Positions 1 through 11,901 of a stretch of 14,578 bases of DNA are shown here, piece by piece. Location of the stretch: the UHGV virus genome UHGV-0349585. One strand, given 5' to 3'. The position numbers and the translations under genes are program-made. The notes beneath the pieces are model-generated. The model made no database searches. It worked only from the letters and a program-made list of their open reading frames with translations, and had not been told where the DNA came from. How positions within the stretch are numbered: the stretch's first letter is position 1; each line of letters opens with the position of its first letter. The DNA is from a virus.

Positions 1-456
1 TCCAGGCTTTGGCTTTAGCCGCTTCGGTTCATCAGCTCTGATGCCAATCCACGTGGTGTAATTCCCTCGCCCGAAATGGTCATCACAGTATTTGGTGAAG
101 GGAACGAGTTTTAATCTGTCAGTGCAGAACGCGCCGCCGACGTATGGAGTGCCATATTTCTTTACCATATCGATAAATGGCTTCAGAACAGGCATTCGCG
201 TCTGAATATCCTTTGGTTCCCATACCGTATAACCATTTGGCTGTCCAAGCTCCGGGTTGATATCAACCTGCAATACGGTGAGCGGTATATCCCAGAACTT
301 CACAACTTCCCTGACAAACCGATATGTCATTGGATGTTCACAACCTGTATCCATGAAAACGTAATGCACGTCTTTACCTGCCCGTCGCTTTTGCTCCATT
401 AGCCAGAGCAAATATGCTGACGTCCTGCCACCGGAGAAACTAACGACATTTATCAT
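1..456 (-). CDS. NinC-position protein with PP-loop (PAPS-reductase-like) N-terminus; partial, C-terminus beyond window edge
   Basis: Minus-strand ATG at 456-454 overlaps ninB stop (ATGA); my own translation begins MINVVSFSGGRTSAYLL, containing an SGGxxS PP-loop motif; open to position 1. Confidence 0.55.
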   Translation of the reverse strand, partial: MINVVSFSGGRTSAYLLWLMEQKRRAGKDVHYVFMDTGCEHPMTYRFVREVVKFWDIPLTVLQVDINPELGQPNGYTVWEPKDIQTRMPVLKPFIDMVKKYGTPYVGGAFCTDRLKLVPFTKYCDDHFGRGNYTTWIGIRADEPKRLKPKPG

Positions 457-893
457 GCAGCCCTGTCTCCCCATCTCGCTTTCCACTCCAGAGCCAGTCG
501 CGCTTCGTCTGACCACTTAACGCCACGCTCTGTACCGAATGCCTGTATAAGCTCTAATAGCTCCGCAAATTCGCCTACACGCATCCTGCTGGTTGACTGG
601 CCTATTACCACAAAGCCATTCCCGTCAAGGTTAGGAACAACGTCCTGCTGCTTTAATGCTGCGGTAAACACACACTTCCAGCTTTCTGCATCCAGCCAGC
701 GACCATGCCATTCAACCTGACGAGAGACGTCACCAAGGCAAGCCCAAAGCTTTCGATTCTGGTCTAAGCTGCGGTTGCGTTCCTGAATGGTTACTACGAT
801 TGGTTTGGTTGGGTCTGGAAGGATTTGCTGTACTGCGTGAATAGCGTTTTGCTGATGTGCTGGGGATCGAATTTCAAAGGTTAGTTTTTTCAT
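453..893 (-). CDS. ninB: NinB (Orf-family recombination mediator), 146 aa
   Basis: ORF-track protein MKKLTFEIRSPAHQQNAIHAVQQ... matches lambda NinB as I recall it, same length and same position upstream of ninC. Confidence 0.85.
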   Translation of the reverse strand: MKKLTFEIRSPAHQQNAIHAVQQILPDPTKPIVVTIQERNRSLDQNRKLWACLGDVSRQVEWHGRWLDAESWKCVFTAALKQQDVVPNLDGNGFVVIGQSTSRMRVGEFAELLELIQAFGTERGVKWSDEARLALEWKARWGDRAA

Positions 894-1086
894 GACTTCC
901 CTCTCTAACAGATTTCAGGTTATTCCACTCCGTTACCGCACTGCGATAATTCGCGGCCGCCACAACAGCGTGGTTAGCGCAGTAGATTTGGCACCCGTTC
1001 TCCATGTCTAATATTGTCGGTGATTTTCCGCACTTACATTTTTTGGCACGCGGTGCGTCTGAACACATTCCGTTAACGGTGTTCAT
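874..1086 (-). CDS. Small Cys-rich (putative zinc-binding) protein in the ren position
   Basis: 70-aa ORF with CKCG...C..YC pattern; GAGGGG-like RBS upstream of ATG at 1086; overlaps ninB start by 20 nt; not lambda Ren. Confidence 0.4.
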   Translation of the reverse strand: MNTVNGMCSDAPRAKKCKCGKSPTILDMENGCQIYCANHAVVAAANYRSAVTEWNNLKSVREGSHEKTNL

Positions 1087-1111
1087 CAGGATACCCCTCG
1101 TTCTTAATCCA

Positions 1112-1145
1112 ATAAAAAAGGGCTACTGTGTAAATAGCCCCTGTT
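1112..1145 (-). terminator. Intrinsic terminator downstream of the helicase gene (tR2-like position)
   Basis: On minus strand: GGGCTA/TAGCCC stem with 7-9 nt loop followed by a T6 run, between helicase stop (1168) and next gene. Confidence 0.55.
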
Positions 1146-1167
1146 ATTAGCTCAGTGATGTAGATGG

Positions 1168-2544
1168 TCATACGTCCGCCCCTTGTGCATATCGTCTGCC
1201 ACGTGCAGCGGGTGCATTTGATGCTGTGCAAATCTGTCTGGCTTCATCCTGGTCACATGCAACAAAGTGTCCGTTGCAGAACCGCTGGTAAACCGTACCA
1301 AGCGAGCCAAAACGGTTTTTCGTCACGATGATTTCAGCAAATGGCGCGGCGCTACTGTTCTCGTCATATACAGCTTCCCGATAGAGCATGATGATTGAGT
1401 CTGCGTCCTGTTCAATGCTTCCTGAATCACGCAAATCTGCGTTTGTCGGGCGTTTGTTTGGTCGCTTCTCAACATCGCGTGAAAGCTGACTCAGGGAGAT
1501 AACAGGCGTTTTCAGGTCTTTCGCCATCGCCTTCAGGCTTCCGGAGATGTGAGCAATTGCGAGGTCGTTGCGATCTGCTTTCGGCTTCTCAATCAGGCCA
1601 AGATAATCCGCCATGATGAGTGACAGGTTGGGATTTTCCTGTTTGTGCCGCTCTGCGATTGAGCGAATTTCTTCTACCGATAACCGCGAGGCATCGACTA
1701 CCCATACATCCAAATCTGCAAGCTGACTCATGCCGTTAGCAACACGCGCCCAGCCTTCGTCATCCATCGATGCAGGATTTCGCAGTACGCTAACCGACAT
1801 CCTCCCGGCGTTGGCAATGCTTCGCTCTGCAATCTGCAATGCGCTCATTTCCATTGAGAAAATCAATACCCCGCGCCGGACGTCAGAACCAGGGATAACG
1901 CGGCTTGCAACGCCTTCGGCAATCTTCAGCGCCAGCTCGGTTTTCCCCATACCAGGACGAGCAGCGATTATCACAAGGTCTTCCGCGTTCATCCCTCCGG
2001 TGATAGCGTCAAGTTCTTCGATTCCGGTCTTCAGGGTATCTGACTCTTCTCCGTTCCTCAGACGCCTGTCAAGCGTGTCAGTGTAGTCAGTGATGATTTC
2101 CCCTAACCGTACAGGTTTAACCTCGTCACGGGGCTTTCTGATGGCTGAAAGACGCTTTACAAGTTCATCCATCGCCTGACTCGATGCGTCGATGGTTCCG
2201 CTCTGAATTGGTTCACGCATTTCATCCATGATTTCCAGCACCAGACGGCGGTGATAGTTATCCGCGACCATTCCGGCATATCCCTTCAGGTTTGCGGCAC
2301 TCGGGCAGTTTTTGCTGGTCATCAGGATTGACGTGAAATGCTCCTCTCCGCACGCCTCGGCAACCATCAGCGCGTCGATTAGGTTTCTGTTTCTCGCCTG
2401 CTTGCGGATAACCTCGAAGGCTTTCCGGTAGAGCGGAATTGAAAACGCTTCCGGCTCCAGCGTTGCCAGAACGTCACTGGCAGTTGGTGTTAATCCACCA
2501 ATCAGCAAGCCACCGATAACGCTCGCTTCGATATCCTGTTTCAT
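1168..2544 (-). CDS. Replicative DNA helicase, DnaB family (phage-encoded, P22 gene 12-like rather than lambda P)
   Basis: 458 aa; Walker A ARPGMGKT; DnaB-like N-terminal and RecA-like C-terminal layout; start overlaps O-like stop (ATGA at 2541-2544). Confidence 0.85.
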
Positions 2545-3371
2545 GCAATCCCCCTGTCTGCAAACTTCCCTTCCCGTACTCCCGTTAACGAATCTTCCCT
2601 CAGCAGGTAATCAAAATCTGCCGTCCAGCCCGTGTCGTTGTCTCCGAAGTAAAACGGCTTGGCCTGATGCACAAACGCCCTGACATACGCTCTGAAACCG
2701 TCCACGTTTGGCGTTTTCAGTTGCGGGATGATTTTCTTCAGGCGGCGTTTGCGTTTCTCGTTGACCGCAACAGCATGTGGAAGTCTGTCACCGACTTCGG
2801 TGTTGTAGGCGTTCAGGAAGGATTCGTAGTCGATTCGTTCTGCCTTGCGACGTTCAGGTTTAACCTGCCCATCGCCGCCCCCGTTAGGGGGTAAGGGGGT
2901 ATTTGTATTTATTGTCTTTTGTATATTGTCTTTTGTGTTTGACTGATTCGGTAAATTGCTTTTTACCGATTTGGTGAAGGTTTGTTTTACCGAATTGGTA
3001 AATGTTTTACCGAATCCGTTAACTTTCGTTTTCCACTCGGAAATGTTTGTATTCATACCAACTTGACGCCCCACCTGAATGAGAACTCCCATTCTGATAA
3101 GCTCGTTTTTGGCGGTAGAGCATTTGGTTGGTGCCATGCCAGTGAGTTCAGCGAACTGTTCGTTTCCGATCCAATCTATTTTTTTGTTGTAACCGTATGT
3201 CTTGCGCCACACAGCCATAACAATCAGTAACTGATGTAGAGTAAGTCCAGAAAGCATGGCGGCTTCTAACAGTGTGTTTGCAGTCCGAGTGTAGCCATCT
3301 TCGAGTTCTGCCACGCGATGCTCCACGACCTCCAGTTGAGGCCTGTAATCAGCTAACTTAACGACGCCCAT
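2541..3371 (-). CDS. Replication initiation protein, lambda O N-terminal-domain family, with iteron-encoded repeat segment
   Basis: 276 aa; [22 protein letters not shown] motif typical of phage O-like initiators; internal repeats [16 protein letters not shown] coincide with DNA iterons; AGGAG RBS before ATG at 3371. Confidence 0.8.
2898..3025. repeat. Origin of replication: iterons plus adjacent AT-rich tract inside the O-like gene
   Basis: TTTTACCGAAT core as three direct copies (about 2961, 2986, 3005) plus one inverted copy (2946-2955); AT-rich tract 2898-2940 with TGTCTTTTGT repeated. Confidence 0.65.
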
Positions 3372-3519
3372 GTTTCACTCCTGCTTTGGCTAGTCTGTAA
3401 ACACCAACAAGGCGCTCTGCGAACGCCCTGTTATTTGCTGCGGCTACCACTAATCCCTCAGGTGAATCAGGGTGTCGAATCTCTTCTTTTTCCTGGTATT
3501 TCTTACGACGTTTTGTCAT
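3358..3519 (-). CDS. Small basic hypothetical protein (53 aa) between cII and the O-like gene
   Basis: My own translation [53 protein letters not shown]; AGGAG RBS 6 nt upstream of ATG at 3519; not in the ORF track (<60 aa). Confidence 0.3.
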   Translation of the reverse strand: MTKRRKKYQEKEEIRHPDSPEGLVVAAANNRAFAERLVGVYRLAKAGVKHGRR

Positions 3520-3553
3520 AATTACTCCTGTGGATTGATCCAGTCTTTCTACA

Positions 3554-3832
3554 TCAGGCCTCGAAGAATTCGCCGTTCTTCGGGGCTTTTTCTTTTGTCA
3601 GCATTCTGGCTACTTTCTTAGCCAGTTCCGCCAACTCCTCGTCTTCAACACCCCATTCAAGAACAGCCAGAAGCATTCCCATTTTTGGGATGAAGCTGTC
3701 TTTCCATCGCGAAATTTGCGATTCATTAATCCCTAACGCGTCGGCAACCTTTCGCTGACCACGTACAGCAATTCGATTCAGGATGTTGCTTGTAATTGCA
3801 TTCGCTTTCTTGCGAGTACTTGTAAGTTGCAT
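3554..3832 (-). CDS. cII: CII-like transcriptional activator (92 aa), diverged from lambda CII
   Basis: Conserved core ALGINESQISRWK...FIPKMGMLLAVLEWGV resembles lambda CII; ATG at 3832 preceded by the lambda-like leader CTAAGGAAATACTTACAT; ORF-track frame extends further upstream but this start has the RBS. Confidence 0.75.
   Translation of the reverse strand: MQLTSTRKKANAITSNILNRIAVRGQRKVADALGINESQISRWKDSFIPKMGMLLAVLEWGVEDEELAELAKKVARMLTKEKAPKNGEFFEA
3557..3596 (+). terminator. Strong intrinsic terminator on the strand antisense to cII, overlapping the cII 3' end (oop-RNA-like arrangement)
   Basis: About 11-bp stem GGCCTCGAAGAA/TTCTTCGGGGC with 7-nt loop, followed directly by TTTTTCTTTT on the plus strand. 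Confidence 0.55.
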
Positions 3833-3859
3833 ATGTAAGTATTTCCTTAGATAACAATT

Positions 3860-3900
3860 GATTGAATGTATGCAAATAAATGCATACACCATAGGTGTGG
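3860..3900 (-). terminator. tR1 region hairpin between nutR and cII
   Basis: Perfect 8-bp inverted repeat TGTATGCA/TGCATACA (3867-3888) plus adjacent CACC..GGTG palindrome; matches lambda tR1 region as I recall it. Confidence 0.5.
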
Positions 3901-3911
3901 TTTAATTTGAT

Positions 3912-3943
3912 GCCCTTTTTCAGGGCTGGAATGTGTAAGAGCG
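3912..3943 (-). promoter_or_regulatory. nutR (boxA and boxB)
   Basis: On minus strand: boxA CGCTCTTA (3943-3936) then boxB hairpin GCCCTGAAAAAGGGC (3926-3912), just after cro. Confidence 0.8.
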
Positions 3944-3950
3944 GGGTTAT

Positions 3951-4160
<210 letters not shown>

Positions 4161-4177
4161 TTAGTACATGCAACTAT

Positions 4178-4247
4178 TATCACCGCTAGAGGTAAAATAG
4201 TCAACACGCACGGTGTTAGATATTTATCCCTCGCGGTGATAGATTTA
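4178..4247. promoter_or_regulatory. OR1-OR2-OR3 operators with divergent pR (toward cro) and pRM (toward cI)
   Basis: 17-bp operators at 4178-4194 (OR1), 4202-4218 (OR2), 4225-4241 (OR3); pR -35 and -10 as AGTCAA and ATTATC on the plus strand; pRM -35 TAGATA (4217-4222) and -10 GATTTA (4242-4247); cI ATG at 4252 is leaderless. Confidence 0.85.
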
Positions 4248-4248
4248 A

Positions 4249-4965
<717 letters not shown>

Positions 4966-7278: not shown

Positions 7279-7340
7279 GGAGCAATGTCGCTCGTAACTA
7301 AACAGGAGCCGACTTGTTCTGATTATTGGAAATCTTCTTT

Positions 7341-7367
7341 GCCCTCCGGTGTGAGGGCAATTTTTTT
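7341..7367 (+). terminator. Intrinsic terminator between the AT-rich ORF and the coiled-coil gene
   Basis: GCCCTC/GAGGGC stem with 6-nt loop followed by AATTTTTTT. Confidence 0.6.
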
Positions 7368-7379
7368 GACGGAGGATAT

Positions 7380-8348
7380 ATGAGTGAAGTAACAGATTTA
7401 GTTGTTATTGAAAAAGCAAATGCAATGACTGTATTTCAGTCTGCCGACCAGATTGAAGAAATCCTTCAAAAGGTTGAACGTGAAGTTATGTCCTTTGTGC
7501 CTGATATCACAACGGCAAAGGGCAGAAAGGAGATCGCTTCTCTGGCGTATAAAGTTGCGCAGACGAAAACATATCTCGATGGTCTTGGAAAAGACCTTGT
7601 TGCTGAACTGAAGGAAATTCCAAAGCTAATTGATGCCAACCGCAAGACAGTGCGCGATCGCCTTGATGAGCTGAAAGCCAAGGCACGCCAGCCTCTTACT
7701 GATTATGAAGAGGAACAGGCGCGAATTAAAGCTGAAGAAGAAGCTAAGGCAGCAGCTGAAGCTCTCGCAAAGCAAATTGAGTCTGACCATGAAATAGCGA
7801 TTTTGATGGATCGCGAATTTGACCGCCAAAGAGAAGAGGCAAGACTCAAAGCGGAGCAGGAAAAGCGAGAGCATGAAGAACGCTTAAAAAGAGAAGCTGA
7901 AGAGAAAGCCAGAGCTGAAGCCGAAGCAAAGGCAAAAGCCGAAATTGAAGCAGCAGCAAGGCGAGAAGCAGAAGCTAAGGCCGCAGCGGAACGTGCAGAG
8001 CGTGAACGCATTGAAGCCGAGCAACGAGCACAGCGCGAAGCAAAAGAGGCAGCAGAACGAGCTGAAAGAGAAAAGCAGGCAGCAATTGAAGCAGAACGCA
8101 GAAAAGCACAGGAGGAGGCTGAACGAATCCGGCGCGAGGCTGAAGCAAAAGAGCAAGCCAGAATAGCAGAAGAAAAAAGAATCAAGGACGAAGAAGAGCG
8201 TAGAGCAAAGGATAAAGCTCACCGAAAAGAAGTAAATAACAAAATACTTGCTGACCTTATCAAGGTTGGCGCATCAGAAGATGTTGCTAAAAATATCATA
8301 ACAGCCATCGTAAAAGGCGAAGTATTCGCAACAAAAATAACCTACTAA
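7380..8348 (+). CDS. Charged coiled-coil protein (about 322 aa) with Glu/Ala/Lys/Arg-rich low-complexity central region
   Basis: GGAGGA RBS then ATG at 7380 (MSEVTDL...); central 200 residues are EAKA/ERAE-type repeats; globular-looking ends; ORF-track frame starts 18 codons upstream without an RBS. Confidence 0.75.
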   Translation: MSEVTDLVVIEKANAMTVFQSADQIEEILQKVEREVMSFVPDITTAKGRKEIASLAYKVAQTKTYLDGLGKDLVAELKEIPKLIDANRKTVRDRLDELKAKARQPLTDYEEEQARIKAEEEAKAAAEALAKQIESDHEIAILMDREFDRQREEARLKAEQEKREHEERLKREAEEKARAEAEAKAKAEIEAAARREAEAKAAAERAERERIEAEQRAQREAKEAAERAEREKQAAIEAERRKAQEEAERIRREAEAKEQARIAEEKRIKDEEERRAKDKAHRKEVNNKILADLIKVGASEDVAKNIITAIVKGEVFATKITY

Positions 8349-8372
8349 TAAAACCAACATAAGGAACCACCC

Positions 8373-8504
8373 ATGATTTACGCAATCGCGGGAGGCGCTC
8401 GCATGGGTGCCTTCCAACTAAATGAATCTTTACTTGAACGAATCACCCGTAAATTACGTGACGGATGGAAAAGAGTTGAGGTCTTATTATGCGCAATGAA
8501 ATAG
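8373..8504 (+). CDS. cIII: CIII-like protein (43 aa), putative FtsH inhibitor
   Basis: My own translation MIYAIAGGARMGAFQLNESLLERITRKLRDGWKRVEVLLCAMK; shares the ESLLERITRKLRDGWKR core with lambda CIII; AAGGA RBS. Confidence 0.7.
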   Translation: MIYAIAGGARMGAFQLNESLLERITRKLRDGWKRVEVLLCAMK

Positions 8505-8641
8505 CCATCAATCACCAGATGCTTCGAGCAGCACAAAACAAAGCAGTAATAGCCAGATTTATTGGTGATTCAAAAATGTGGCTTGAAGCAAATAAAGCGA
8601 TGAAATCAGCTATCAACCTTCCGTGGTATCGCAGGAAATGA
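8489..8641 (+). CDS. kil: Kil-like protein (50 aa), putative cell-division inhibitor
   Basis: My own translation MRNEIAINHQMLRAAQNKAVIARFIGDSKMWLEANKAMKSAINLPWYRRK; resembles the lambda Kil segment ...IATFIGDEKMFREA... as I recall it; GAGG RBS; overlaps cIII 3' end. Confidence 0.55.
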   Translation: MRNEIAINHQMLRAAQNKAVIARFIGDSKMWLEANKAMKSAINLPWYRRK

Positions 8642-8715
8642 GTTTTACAGATAACTGGTCAGACAAAGAATTCATTCGTCAGATGAAAGAATTAATCGGT
8701 AACGAAGGAGATATG

Positions 8716-8886
8716 CATGTCACTTGCAACCACAGTGAAGGAGAGCAAGTTACAGAGACGCATGTACACTCAGCAGGCGTTAATGTATCGCCAGAAGGGA
8801 GATCGTGAAGGTGTTCGCGTATTTTTGAATGCGGCAAAGACTGAAGTATTAAATCAGCGTTATTTCCTTGGGCCATGTCCATTCTG
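8716..8886 (+). CDS. Small hypothetical protein (56 aa)
   Basis: AAGGAGA RBS 5 nt upstream of ATG at 8716; my own translation MSLATTVKESKLQRRMYTQQALMYRQKGDREGVRVFLNAAKTEVLNQRYFLGPCPF; competes with the ORF-track frame 8623-8808. Confidence 0.3.
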
Positions 8887-8895
8887 AGGTGAATT

Positions 8896-9603
8896 ATGGA
8901 TTTGAACAAATTCGATGAGCCATTCAGCCCCGAAGATATCGAATGGCGAATACAGCAAAGCGGTAAAACACGCGATGGCAAGGTGTGGGCTATGGTGCTG
9001 GCTTATGTCACGAACCGGGCAATCATGAAACGCCTGGATGATGTTTGCGGCAAAGCAGGATGGCGCAATGAATACCGCGATATTCCCAACAACGGCGGAG
9101 TTGAATGCGGCATATCAATCAAGATTGATTCCGAATGGGTAACCAAATGGGATGCTGCTGAAAACACGCAGGTAGAAGCCGTCAAAGGTGGTCGTTCCGG
9201 TGCAATGAAGCGTGCTGCCGTTCAGTGGGGAATCGGTCGGTATCTGTATAACCTTGAGGAAGGTTTCGCACAAACATCTCTCGACAAAAAGCAGGGATGG
9301 CACAGGGCAAAACTCAAGGATGGAACAGGATTTTACTGGCTCCCTCCATCGCTGCCGGGCTGGGCAATCCCAGCATCAGATAACAAACCATCACCAGAAA
9401 ATACCAACCAGAAATCTCCATCGGTTGACTGCGAACAAATCCTGAAAGACTTCAGCGATTATGCAGCGACAGAAACTGACAAGAAAAAACTCATCGAGCG
9501 TTATCAGCATGACTGGCAATTAATGGCTGGAAACGAGGAGGCGCAGGCTAAATGCGTTCAGGTAATGAACATCAGAGTTAACGAGCTAAAACAGGCGGCA
9601 TAA
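8896..9603 (+). CDS. Single-strand annealing protein, Rad52/Sak-like family (235 aa)
   Basis: RAAVQWGIGRYLY motif and overall size and layout resemble phage Rad52-family annealing proteins; GAGGTG RBS; directly precedes ssb. Confidence 0.7.
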   Translation: MDLNKFDEPFSPEDIEWRIQQSGKTRDGKVWAMVLAYVTNRAIMKRLDDVCGKAGWRNEYRDIPNNGGVECGISIKIDSEWVTKWDAAENTQVEAVKGGRSGAMKRAAVQWGIGRYLYNLEEGFAQTSLDKKQGWHRAKLKDGTGFYWLPPSLPGWAIPASDNKPSPENTNQKSPSVDCEQILKDFSDYAATETDKKKLIERYQHDWQLMAGNEEAQAKCVQVMNIRVNELKQAA

Positions 9604-10077
9604 ATGGCAAGCAGAGGCGTAAATAAGGTGATCATTATTGGTCGCCTTGGGCATGATCCAGAAATCAGATATTCACCATCAGGAACGGCATTTGCAAACC
9701 TTACAGTTGCTACGTCAGAACAATGGCGTGATAAGCAAACTGGAGAGCAAAAGGAGCAGACGGAGTGGCACCGCGTGGTAATGAGCGGGAAACTGGCAGA
9801 AATTGCCAGCGAATATCTGCGAAAAGGCTCTGAGGTTTATCTTGAAGGAAAATTGCGGACAAGAAAATGGCAGGATCAAAGCGGACAGGATAGGTTCACT
9901 ACCGAAGTCATCGTGGGCGTTGGTGGAACCATGCAAATGCTTGGTGGCAAGCAAGGAGGCAATGAACAGTCTTCACCTCAGCGAAATAATGGTCATCAAC
10001 AAAGACAGCAACCTCAGCAGCATGGAAATCACAGCGAACCACCTATGAACTTCGACGATTCGGATATTCCGTTCTAG
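9604..10077 (+). CDS. ssb: Single-stranded DNA-binding protein
   Basis: OB-fold N-terminus ([18 protein letters not shown]...), Gly/Gln-rich linker and acidic tail DDSDIPF. Confidence 0.9.
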
Positions 10078-10086
10078 GAGCTGAAT

Positions 10087-10566
10087 ATGAAAATCTGCTC
10101 AAGATGCCATCAACAGAAGGAAGAAAGGGACTTTCAAATCAGAAGAGCATCCAGAGATGGATTAACTGCCGCTTGCCGGGCTTGCCTGGCTGAATATGAC
10201 AAAGAGCGCGCGGGATTGCCACATCGAGTATCAGCAAGGAGAGAATATCAATCATCGGAACGCGGCAGAGAACGGTGTAACGCAGCCAAAAAGCGGTTCA
10301 TTCAGAGCAACCCATGGAAAAGAAAAGCCCACATCATCGTGGGTAATTTTTTGCGCGACGGTAAGCTAATCCGACCACCACAATGTGAGTGCTGCGGATC
10401 AGAATGTAAACCACAGGCGCACCACTGCGACTACAGCAAACCAACCGATGTGATGTGGCTCTGCAAGTCATGTCATGTCGAGTGGCACAAACATAACAAA
10501 CCTATCTACCCAGACGAGGAGCCAGTAACTCTCCCCTTCCCTCGTCACGCTATTCACGCAATTTAA
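10087..10566 (+). CDS. HNH-endonuclease-like zinc-binding protein (159 aa)
   Basis: Two Cys clusters (CSRCH...CRAC and CECCGSEC...CKSCH) with an HH...WH arrangement typical of HNH nucleases; GGAG RBS. Confidence 0.6.
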   Translation: MKICSRCHQQKEERDFQIRRASRDGLTAACRACLAEYDKERAGLPHRVSARREYQSSERGRERCNAAKKRFIQSNPWKRKAHIIVGNFLRDGKLIRPPQCECCGSECKPQAHHCDYSKPTDVMWLCKSCHVEWHKHNKPIYPDEEPVTLPFPRHAIHAI

Positions 10567-10574
10567 GGACTTAC

Positions 10575-11123
10575 ATGAATCACTTGATGGTTGACCTTGA
10601 AACAATGGGCAACGGGCCATACGCGCCAGTTATTTCTATTGGGTCGGTATTCTTTGACCCGAATACCGGAGAAACAGGAGAAGAGTTCTCGGTAAATATC
10701 TCGCTTGAATCATCAATGCGATATCGAGCGCGTCCTGACGCTTCAACGATTTTATGGTGGCTGGAACAGAGTGAAGAAGCCAGAAAATCGCTAACCAGCA
10801 ACACTCAGGAGCTTTCAACGGCTCTTTCATGGTTATCTGAATTCATCATAAAGAACGCTAACCACAAATTCGTTCAGGTTTGGGGGAATGGAGCATCATT
10901 TGACTGCGTTATTCTCCGAAACAGTTATTCGCTGACAGGGCAGCCAGTTCCGTGGCAGTGGTGGAATGACCGCGACGTAAGAACAATCGTCGAACTTGGG
11001 AAGGTAATAGGATTCGACCCTAAGCGAGATATGCCATTCAAAGGAACTCGCCACAACGCGCTTGATGATGCCATTCACCAAGCCAAATACGTTTCAGCGA
11101 TCTGGAAAAAGTTAGCTAAATAA
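10575..11123 (+). CDS. DEDDh-type 3'-5' exonuclease (DnaQ-like fold), 182 aa
   Basis: Exo I-like motif MVDLETMG near the N-terminus and Exo III-like motif H-x4-D (HNALDDAIH) near the C-terminus; AAGGA RBS. Confidence 0.7.
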   Translation: MNHLMVDLETMGNGPYAPVISIGSVFFDPNTGETGEEFSVNISLESSMRYRARPDASTILWWLEQSEEARKSLTSNTQELSTALSWLSEFIIKNANHKFVQVWGNGASFDCVILRNSYSLTGQPVPWQWWNDRDVRTIVELGKVIGFDPKRDMPFKGTRHNALDDAIHQAKYVSAIWKKLAK

Positions 11124-11139
11124 TCAACAGGAGAAAACC

Positions 11140-11436
11140 ATGCCAGCGCCTCTGTATGGTGCGGATGACCCGCGCCGCTGTTCCGGCAATTCCGTATCGG
11201 AGGTGCTGGAAAATATCAAGAATAATCTCGACGCGTTTCTTGCTCTGCCACCAGAAACAAAAGAAGAACGGAAGTGCCGACGCGATATACAACTCGCAGA
11301 AAAACAGGAAAAAGACCGAATAAACGAAACATCAATCCGACCATTCCGCAAAGCCACATATACCCACTTCCCTGAATATATCGACCCGCGCCTGCGTAAT
11401 TACCGCTCACGCTATGGCGCTATCAGTAATGACTGA
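11140..11436 (+). CDS. Hypothetical protein (98 aa)
   Basis: AGGAG RBS before ATG at 11140; ORF-track protein; no recognised motif. Confidence 0.55.
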   Translation: MPAPLYGADDPRRCSGNSVSEVLENIKNNLDAFLALPPETKEERKCRRDIQLAEKQEKDRINETSIRPFRKATYTHFPEYIDPRLRNYRSRYGAISND

Positions 11437-11446
11437 GGAATTTACC

Positions 11447-11737
11447 ATGAAAACAATGAAGCTAAACATCGACCTCGGAAAATACGTTATTACCGGAACC
11501 AAACACGATCTGATTCTTAGTGAAAGAGGAATTATCAAAGAAGGCGAGAATGCAGGGAAAGAAACACTAAGCCGTATCGGTTATTACAGCAAGTTTGAGC
11601 ATCTGGTTAAAGAATTATGCAACCGTGAAATCCTGTTATCTCAGGCGCAGACGCTACAGGATATTCAGCAGCATATCGAAACTTTAGGTATGTCACTTAG
11701 CATGGCTATTGACCAGTTCGTTGAGAGTAAATCATGA
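11447..11737 (+). CDS. Hypothetical protein (96 aa)
   Basis: GAGGA RBS before ATG at 11447 ([13 protein letters not shown]...); ORF-track frame begins upstream at 11414 without an RBS. Confidence 0.55.
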
Positions 11738-11901
11738 GAGGACTTGCATACAATCCCGGCATTCTTCCGGCAGAAATGATTATTCGCCAGCGCGTAAAGC
11801 CAATGCCATCGAGAGAGGAATTGCTTAAGAGAAAGAGTTTCGGTTCTGTTAATGACAACAAATATCTGAATGCGATGTGGCGTAAAGGAGGCAACCAGTG
11901 A
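11734..11901 (+). CDS. Small hypothetical protein (55 aa), translationally coupled
   Basis: ATGA overlap with the previous stop; my own translation [55 protein letters not shown]. Confidence 0.4.

Follow-up and report, generated by a model that had tools for sequence, protein, structure and literature searches.

Which nuclease prepares DNA for annealing in a phage recombination module whose own exonuclease is predicted to run in the 3'-5' direction is the question raised by UHGV-0349585, a viral DNA of 14,578 nucleotides (here called the window, meaning the whole stretch) that contains the early region and the immunity region of a lambdoid prophage. The original prediction, made without database searches, had recognised a module of four genes (8896-11123) encoding a Rad52/Sak-type annealing protein, a single-stranded DNA-binding protein (SSB), an HNH-like zinc protein and a DEDDh exonuclease. 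It had seen no Gam-like RecBCD inhibitor, unless among the small unassigned reading frames, and had found the partnership of a 3'-5' exonuclease with an annealing protein mechanistically unclear. Our analysis indicates that host RecBCD most likely provides the missing 5'-3' nuclease activity; by analogy with phage P22, this enzyme would be hijacked by an Abc2 protein encoded by the next gene.

Profile searches revealed that the open reading frame (ORF) following the exonuclease gene encodes a predicted Abc2, an anti-RecBCD (RecBCD-modifying) protein. The gene starts 17 nucleotides past the four-gene span, the boundary of the module having been drawn one gene short. Its product matches PF11043 (E=6e-44; 148.6 bits against a cutoff of 25) and PHROG 656 (E=5.5e-50), is 71% identical to the Abc2 of P22, and matches PDB 8b1t, the Abc2 chain of the RecBCD-Abc2 cryo-electron microscopy structure, at E=5e-40. 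Residues R67-P68 are present, P68 being the conserved PpiB-site proline. Furthermore, the gene order cIII-kil-(small ORFs)-annealing protein-...-abc2-DUF2737 is common to P22, Sf6, HK97 and Bas106. These sequence matches identify the ORF as a predicted abc2 gene that is part of the module. P22 Abc2 binds RecC, and in the published model RecBCD is hijacked to make single-stranded DNA and to load the phage recombinase; the same paper notes that phages encoding Abc2 are devoid of an exonuclease of their own, RecBCD being co-opted (PMC9836394), and the sak4-ssb-abc2 module of HK620 was described likewise (PMC5928155). Extrapolating from P22 Abc2, the window protein would bind RecC and alter the response of RecBCD to Chi (PMC9836394); the window itself contains no Chi site, against approximately 0.4 expected by chance, a count that is uninformative. 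With Abc2 present the polarity paradox is removed, because the 3'-5' enzyme need not resect, and the puzzle of its partnership with an annealing protein in a module devoid of a RecBCD inhibitor is seen to have rested on the missed abc2 gene.

The four ORFs were found where they had been placed, all on the plus strand (Table 1), and profile searches agree with the calls of annealing protein, SSB and DEDDh exonuclease. As had also been claimed, the module is not of the lambda Exo/Bet/Gam kind: none of the lambda Exo/YqaJ, RecE, Bet or Gam families was recovered in any ORF of the window, and a canonical phage 5'-3' exonuclease, looked for in the same ORFs, was not found. The annealing protein matches PF04098 over residues 4-136 (E=5e-26; 91.9 bits against a cutoff of 20.3), a domain present in all 120 of its listed homologues. 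Its AlphaFold (AF2) model (predicted local distance difference test score of 84) comprises a structured N-terminal domain, a disordered linker (residues 162-175) and a C-terminal three-helix bundle, and the top 16 Foldseek matches of this model in the PDB are all Mgm101 or human RAD52 (probability 0.99-1.0). Profile and model thus agree on a predicted Rad52/Sak-type annealing protein. The SSB is of the bacterial type (PF00436, E=1e-38, 131.9 bits; TIGR00621, 181 bits against a cutoff of 53.95) and ends in a free acidic tip, ...NFDDSDIPF*. Pairs of an annealing protein and its cognate SSB are functional units in HK620 (PMC5928155) and in S. aureus phages.

The C-terminal part of the annealing protein has a different relative. 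Over residues 157-235 (window 9364-9600), it shares 66% identity with the P22 Erf C-terminus and 37% with HK97 Erf, and BLASTP against residues 134-205 of P22 Erf returned E=3e-31. By sequence comparison, the protein is a predicted chimera of a Rad52/Sak annealing domain and an Erf-type three-helix C-terminal domain, the latter explaining the 'Erf-like' labels given to it in Sf6 and in PHROG-based annotation. The Erf-type domain occurs in 166 phage records, whose breakdown by organism name is for the most part similar to that of the 226 Abc2 records. A role as a strict Abc2 adaptor was considered and rejected: the domain is absent from Sak4-type modules that possess Abc2 (TL-2011a), and weaker copies occur in mEp234 and EhrS_49, which are listed without an anti-RecBCD function (PMC12315714, Table 1). 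The domain appears, on these distributions, to be a shuffled partner-interaction domain that is not strictly tied to Abc2.

The exonuclease covers all 177 of the 177 positions of PF16473 (E=2.4e-72; 242.8 bits against a cutoff of 27) and retains the complete D-E-D-D-h catalytic set (D7, E9, D110, D165 and H160). Its sole solved relative is PDB 8kel (E=1.9e-13), identical in sequence to a protein annotated as dexA product in a T4-like phage. The protein is consequently a predicted DEDDh exonuclease of 3'-5' polarity; among the exonucleases of PF16473, DexA acts on DNA and Rv2179c on RNA. The call of an HNH-like zinc protein fared less evenly, since a conserved Cys/His motif is present and a curated HNH profile match is lacking. 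The protein starts with a CxxC...CxxC ribbon, continues with a helical region and closes with a CxxC-HH-CxxC-H-H motif, and C100, C103, H112, H113, D115, Y116, C126, H130 and H134 are invariant among 31 HNH-like sequences, with C129 conserved in at least 90%. Neither this protein nor any of the 31 homologues matched an HNH profile of Pfam or NCBIfam, and no sequence match in the PDB was obtained with a single-sequence or a profile query. The motif, together with a possible beta-beta-alpha-Me fold, suggests a putative HNH-like nuclease.

In order to distinguish core from optional genes, related loci were compared, namely 80 viral contigs with an annealing protein at least 98% identical to that of the window, together with Bas106 and Sf6. 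SSB and Abc2 are encoded in all 81 loci that reach far enough. The interval between ssb and abc2, in contrast, is empty in 33 of these, holds the exonuclease only in 26, the HNH-like gene only in 18, and both in four; these four states indicate that the two nuclease genes are independent optional cassettes. The window thus carries the rarest state, and each nuclease is absent from most otherwise near-identical modules. Judging by the junction sequences, the exonuclease cassette was inserted after the stop codon of the gene before it and ahead of the ribosome-binding site of abc2. In phage LLS, devoid of both an annealing protein and a Rec module, the gene of a 60% identical exonuclease adjoins xis; more distant relatives lie within replication clusters (RcPutin, beside a DNA polymerase gene) or form part of larger fusion proteins. 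Since the nucleases are missing from many near-identical modules, and the exonuclease exists in LLS without an annealing protein, they are not obligate partners of the annealing protein. The observation behind the original prediction is real, apart from the overlooked abc2 gene; its family assignments are right, and its interpretation is right in part. The complete five-gene block is present in 100 of 5426 complete E. coli genomes, with partial matches in 1107 of the 5426, and the exact module proteins were found on hundreds of contigs. In an unrelated module of a Hafnia prophage (1901-4540), the genes encode, in this order, an ExoX-like DEDDh exonuclease (PF00929), a Sak4-like protein, an HkaK-like SSB ending in DDDIPFN and a homologue of the HNH-like protein, so that recombination genes have been joined independently for a second time by a 3'-5' exonuclease and a member of this HNH family.

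We consider it probable that the core of the system consists of the annealing protein, the SSB and Abc2-modified RecBCD, with the nucleases as accessories. From the gene identities, order, presence or absence and junction sequences observed here, and from published work on P22 and HK620 homologues, we infer each of the following biochemical steps. Abc2 would bind the RecC subunit of host RecBCD, and the modified enzyme would unwind phage DNA ends, degrading the 5' strand preferentially and independently of Chi. The phage SSB would coat the resulting 3' single strand, and the Rad52-type protein would anneal this coated strand to a complementary one, the expected outcome being genome mosaicism and replication that depends on recombination and forms concatemers. 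Whereas lambda encodes its own 5'-3' nuclease, the window phage would borrow this activity from the host. The HNH-like and DexA-like genes would then be optional cassettes between ssb and abc2, neither supplying the resection nuclease. Our best guess for the exonuclease is a trimming of 3' ends, which may remove non-homologous 3' tails or flaps from annealed intermediates or may blunt ends for the loading of RecBCD-Abc2; for the HNH-like protein it is either a nuclease of the homing type, and so mobile, or a nickase linked to the C-terminal tip of the SSB.

Several points weigh against this reading. Abc2 is known to cooperate with P22 Erf and with lambda Bet, whereas its cooperation with a Rad52/Sak-type protein is a prediction, and the steps of the core model rest on homologues, the activities of the window proteins being predicted by analogy. 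The two nuclease genes run in the same direction as the core genes, with hardly any space between them, and nucleases contiguous in this way were deemed probable genuine module members by Zheng et al. (PMC12315714). The recurrence in Hafnia hints at a contribution of such nucleases to recombination. T4 DexA is itself involved in intron homing that depends on break repair, and dispensability among relatives may be compatible with a real, modulatory role in recombination.

The relationship of the HNH-like gene to the SSB tip is the one point that we regard as worth pursuing, and it may matter more than the module itself. The SSB ORF ends in ...DIPF in all 22 loci that carry the HNH-like gene, whereas in 59 of 60 HNH-less loci it runs 15 residues past the tip (APVTLPFPRHAIHAI), the exception being a truncated locus. 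The HNH-like protein itself ends in the final 14 residues of this extension (window codons 10522-10563). Two HNH types that are only 48% identical occupy this one site with an identical 3' flank, and a tract of approximately 27 nucleotides directly 5' of the junction co-varies with the presence of the HNH-like gene in both SSB sequence types. The association extends to distant homologues, examined on 80 diverse viral contigs (34-61% identity), 79 of which include upstream sequence: in 73 of the 79, an upstream ORF ending in [DE]..[DE][IVLM]PF lies -8 to +95 nucleotides from the HNH match, and in the remaining six the upstream ORF has a variant tip. As background, only three other such ends were counted among approximately 949 plus-strand ORFs of the same 402 kb. 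An SSB-type tip on the directly upstream gene was also observed in four of four further, unrelated HNH contexts. The tip-bearing upstream proteins span unrelated folds, including OB-fold SSB, HkaK-like SSB, Sak4-like AAA_24 ATPase and others that have no known fold, and a literature search found no paper stating a rule of HNH and SSB-tip adjacency.

These data tentatively suggest an undescribed family locked to the C-terminal tip of SSB, either as a homing lineage specialised on the evolutionarily constrained DNA that encodes the tip or as a nuclease recruited or licensed by the tip; the claim as a whole seems to us possible and somewhat short of likely. A related and similarly uncertain explanation holds that the HNH-like protein is a selfish freestanding homing endonuclease, which would cut HNH-less ssb genes near the DIPF-coding DNA, be copied in by repair, and have no role in recombination. 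The precise indel at the DIPF codon, dividing 22 loci with the gene from 59 without it, fits such a history, as do the shared site and 3' flank of the two divergent types, the co-varying upstream tract, and the fact that members always abut a tip-encoding gene whatever the fold of its product. Cleavage, however, is only predicted, the HNH-less state could be a deletion derivative, and adjacency to non-homologous tip proteins would be equally expected of a nuclease that depends on the SSB tip; moreover, recombinase-dependent HNH nucleases exist (P1 Ref, PhiNM1 Gp16). Under either version, if true, the arrival of the HNH-like gene would rewire the partner choice of the phage SSB. The adjacency and the masked tip of HNH-less SSBs bear on phage SSB biology and on recombineering designs that use contacts of the SSB tip. 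As separate observations, the 90%-identity cluster of the HNH-like protein also holds 157-residue SSBs, and the list of its homologues includes SSB-HNH and HNH-exonuclease hybrid proteins (P0055, P0058, P0068 and P0097). Some of this mixing probably stems from the shared tail, and some from local deletions or frameshifts.

As to the exonuclease, its relative in LLS offers a clue. RecBCD needs nearly blunt ends, and LLS depends on active RecBCD, so that an exonuclease in this phage fits a role in end trimming for RecBCD loading; in the window, too, the enzyme adjoins Abc2, which keeps RecBCD active. It is unlikely, in our judgement, that the exonuclease is instead a weapon against competing phages, degrading the 5-hydroxymethylcytosine DNA of superinfecting T-even phages in the manner of the E. 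coli DexA homologue EcD. The window protein is homologous to DexA and keeps every catalytic residue, and its W130 aligns with DexA W152 (in our numbering), which we assume to be the tryptophan that recognises 5-hydroxymethylcytosine in PMC12153337. Its presence or absence is moron-like, it is also found outside Rec modules, and plasmid-borne EcD protects E. coli from T4, cutting T4 DNA and sparing unmodified DNA (PMC12153337). The gene, however, lies in the repressed early-left operon and should be silent in a lysogen: for the cluster, where chance alone would give 5.1 promoter-like sites, the promoter scan returned two. DexA D169, the aspartate proposed to read 5-hydroxymethylcytosine, is not clearly aligned, and PADLOC, run on ten early-left proteins, gave no defence match for this or any other of them. 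Whether EcD (HAK9828821.1), the published anti-T4 enzyme, belongs to the clade of the window protein or can be equated with it is uncertain: the cluster listing does not include its accession, the alignment near DexA D90 is ambiguous, and the shorter homologue candidate is the C-terminal domain of an approximately 820-residue pseudogene product. A DexA-like DEDDh domain also forms the C-terminal ~180 residues of ~820-residue 'putative exonuclease' proteins that are encoded beside xis/int in other lambdoid prophages (PPompW_EH1846, 1088-3555; PHROGs 2082, 20376 and 255).

Least probable of all is a self-contained four-protein machine that would not need RecBCD, in which the HNH-like protein nicks or cuts, the exonuclease resects 3'-5', SSB coats and the Rad52-type protein anneals: the tight unidirectional packing, the published view of contiguous DnaQ-like and HNH genes as likely Rec-module members (PMC12315714), the recurrence of like functions from unrelated families in Hafnia (ExoX-like, Sak4, SSB-2 and HNH) and the constant adjacency of the HNH family to an SSB-tip gene would all suit it, but neither nuclease is present in 33 of the 81 near-identical modules and both are in only four, Abc2 is adjacent and invariant, the exonuclease family also occurs without an annealing protein (next to xis in LLS, next to a DNA polymerase gene in RcPutin), and 3'-5' exonucleases usually lower recombination (PMC12315714).

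The Abc2-centred reading is also in keeping with the genomic setting (Table 1). With cIII and kil directly upstream, the module is placed at the position of lambda Red and P22 erf in the early-left operon, which is encoded on the plus strand downstream of the cI-type gene and comprises N, cIII, Kil, the recombination genes, Ead/Ea22, a Lar-like protein and a terminal excisionase-like ORF. The four ORFs of the original span are tightly packed and co-directional (+), with spacers of 0-9 nucleotides, and with fewer promoter-like sites than expected by chance there is no sign of an internal promoter, so that co-transcription is likely. Promoter and terminator scans showed no excess over chance and no indication of moron-type independent expression, and a repeat search of 8300-11800 returned short chance-level matches only, with no boundary repeats.

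Table 1. Annotated features of the window, with the families or database entries matched.
Feature	Coordinates	Strand	Length (amino acids)	Family or basis
NinB, DnaB-type helicase, O-like initiator, cII, cro	453-4151	-		
cI-type repressor	4252-4965	+		
cIII	8373-8504	+		PF02061 (E=4e-15)
Kil	8489-8641	+		PF06301 (E=1.7e-20)
Two small ORFs, overlapping in different frames	8623-8808 and 8717-8887	+		PHROG 2123 and 1723; Sf6/HK97 annotation
Single-strand annealing protein (predicted)	8896-9603	+	235	PF04098 (Rad52_Rad22)
Bacterial-type SSB	9604-10077	+	157	PF00436, TIGR00621
Putative HNH-like (beta-beta-alpha-Me) zinc protein	10087-10566	+	159	PHROG 2340; motif
DEDDh exonuclease, predicted 3'-5'	10575-11123	+	182	PF16473; Rv2179c-like/T4 DexA family
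Abc2 anti-RecBCD (RecBCD-modifying) protein (predicted)	11140-11436	+	98	PF11043, PHROG 656, PDB 8b1t

Among the neighbours, the two small overlapping ORFs upstream of the annealing-protein gene are homologues of HK97 gp42.1/gp42 and of Sf6 genes 30/29, and are labelled 'recombinase' in PHROGs. They sit at the arf position, but their best BLASTP match to P22 Arf is not significant (E=0.69). The ORF at 11414-11737, a DUF5405 homologue of Sf6 gene 24 that overlaps the end of abc2 and is labelled 'replication initiation protein' in PHROGs, is a variable cassette among the related loci; it was considered as Abc1 and rejected, as BLASTP shows no significant similarity. Just 5' of cIII, in a region of strong AT skew, a 340-residue homologue of the Sf6 gene 33 product is encoded (7326-8348), with a long middle part rich in Glu, Lys, Ala and Arg that is probably a coiled-coil; it matches only PHROGs to which no function is assigned, and no Pfam family. 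At the opposite end of the window, the nin region of the early-right operon encodes a NinB recombination mediator of the lambda Orf family (453-893, minus strand), and its presence implies that the phage has a second, separate recombination function.

The closest known systems include Sf6 and Bas106. Over 8400-11500, the window is 96.8% identical in nucleotide sequence to phage CurroJimenez_Bas106, which has the identical five-gene order, and 95.5% to Shigella phage Sf6, in which genes 28-25 encode annealing protein, SSB, HNH and Abc2. The P22 module (arf-erf-abc1-abc2) has the same operon position after cIII-kil and, besides its similar Abc2, a gene after abc2 (DUF2737/ORF56) that is 73% identical; the annealing protein resembles Erf over its C-terminal ~70 residues, at 66% identity. 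In contrast, the annealing domain is of the Rad52/Sak family (PF04098) in the window and of the Erf family (PF04404) in P22, and the window has neither Abc1 nor Arf, its SSB, HNH-like and exonuclease genes filling the abc1 slot; BLASTP with Abc1 gave no match at E<=1e-3, those beyond this limit being at chance level (E~10). With P22-type Rec modules the window thus has only Abc2 and the Erf C-terminal domain in common, and it is not of that type. The HK620 module (hkaM-sak4-ssb-abc2) likewise combines an annealing protein, a cognate SSB and Abc2 with no phage exonuclease, and the last six residues of its SSB are needed for stimulation of the recombinase (Hutinet et al. 2018, PMC5928155). It differs in that the recombinase is the RecA-like Sak4, the SSB is not an OB-fold SSB-1, and Sak4-type modules lack the Erf-like C-terminal domain. 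Lambda Red (Exo/Bet/Gam) occupies the same genomic slot and presumably performs the same role, end-initiated single-strand annealing for replication and recombination. Unlike lambda, the window encodes no YqaJ-type 5'-3' exonuclease, Bet/RecT or Gam, and RecBCD is proposed to be used, not blocked.

The accessory enzymes have their own counterparts. T4 DexA and E. coli EcD (Kang et al. 2025, PMC12153337) are of the same DEDDh fold family, their catalytic residues being kept in the window protein. The latter, however, has 182 residues against 227 in DexA, lacks the extra loops of DexA, is ~35% identical to it, and is encoded in the early operon of a temperate phage. Small HNH proteins in or near recombination or SSB genes are represented by P1 Ref, PhiNM1 Gp16, SPP1 gp36.1 and the Mob/Seg-type proteins of T4. 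In SPP1, the recT-like gene 35, the SSB gene 36 and the HNH gene 36.1 follow in the same order, while Gp16 and Ref are RecA-dependent nickases. The HNH-like protein has no detectable sequence relationship to any of these, and the NinB-like N-terminal domain of Gp16 contrasts with the arrangement of zinc ribbon, helical region and HNH found here.

The module as a whole is of an ordinary and already known type, catalogued in 2025. In a survey of 325 lambdoid genomes, Zheng, Casjens, Davidson, Amundsen and Smith (2025) defined Rec modules by the way in which they combine four functions (SSB, nuclease, strand annealing and anti-RecBCD), reported DnaQ-like 3'-5' and HNH nucleases inside them, and noted 3'-5' nucleases as usually inhibiting recombination (PMC12315714). 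The earlier remark that the role of the 3'-5' exonuclease is mechanistically unclear hence restates an open point that is already published (PMC12315714). What the present analysis adds in this respect is three useful corrections: Abc2 belongs to the module, the polarity paradox is gone, and both nucleases are optional by population data. The ES18 class of the survey, for which 25 phages are listed, is defined by anti-RecBCD, SSB, nuclease and strand-annealing protein (PMC12315714), and the contiguous stretch 8896-11436 encodes a strand-annealing protein, an SSB, two nucleases and Abc2, all predicted, which puts the window in this class. The survey records zero to four module genes per phage, with three phages possessing two genes of one function (PMC12315714), whereas the window has five genes, two of them for nucleases, and this is its sole departure from the class.

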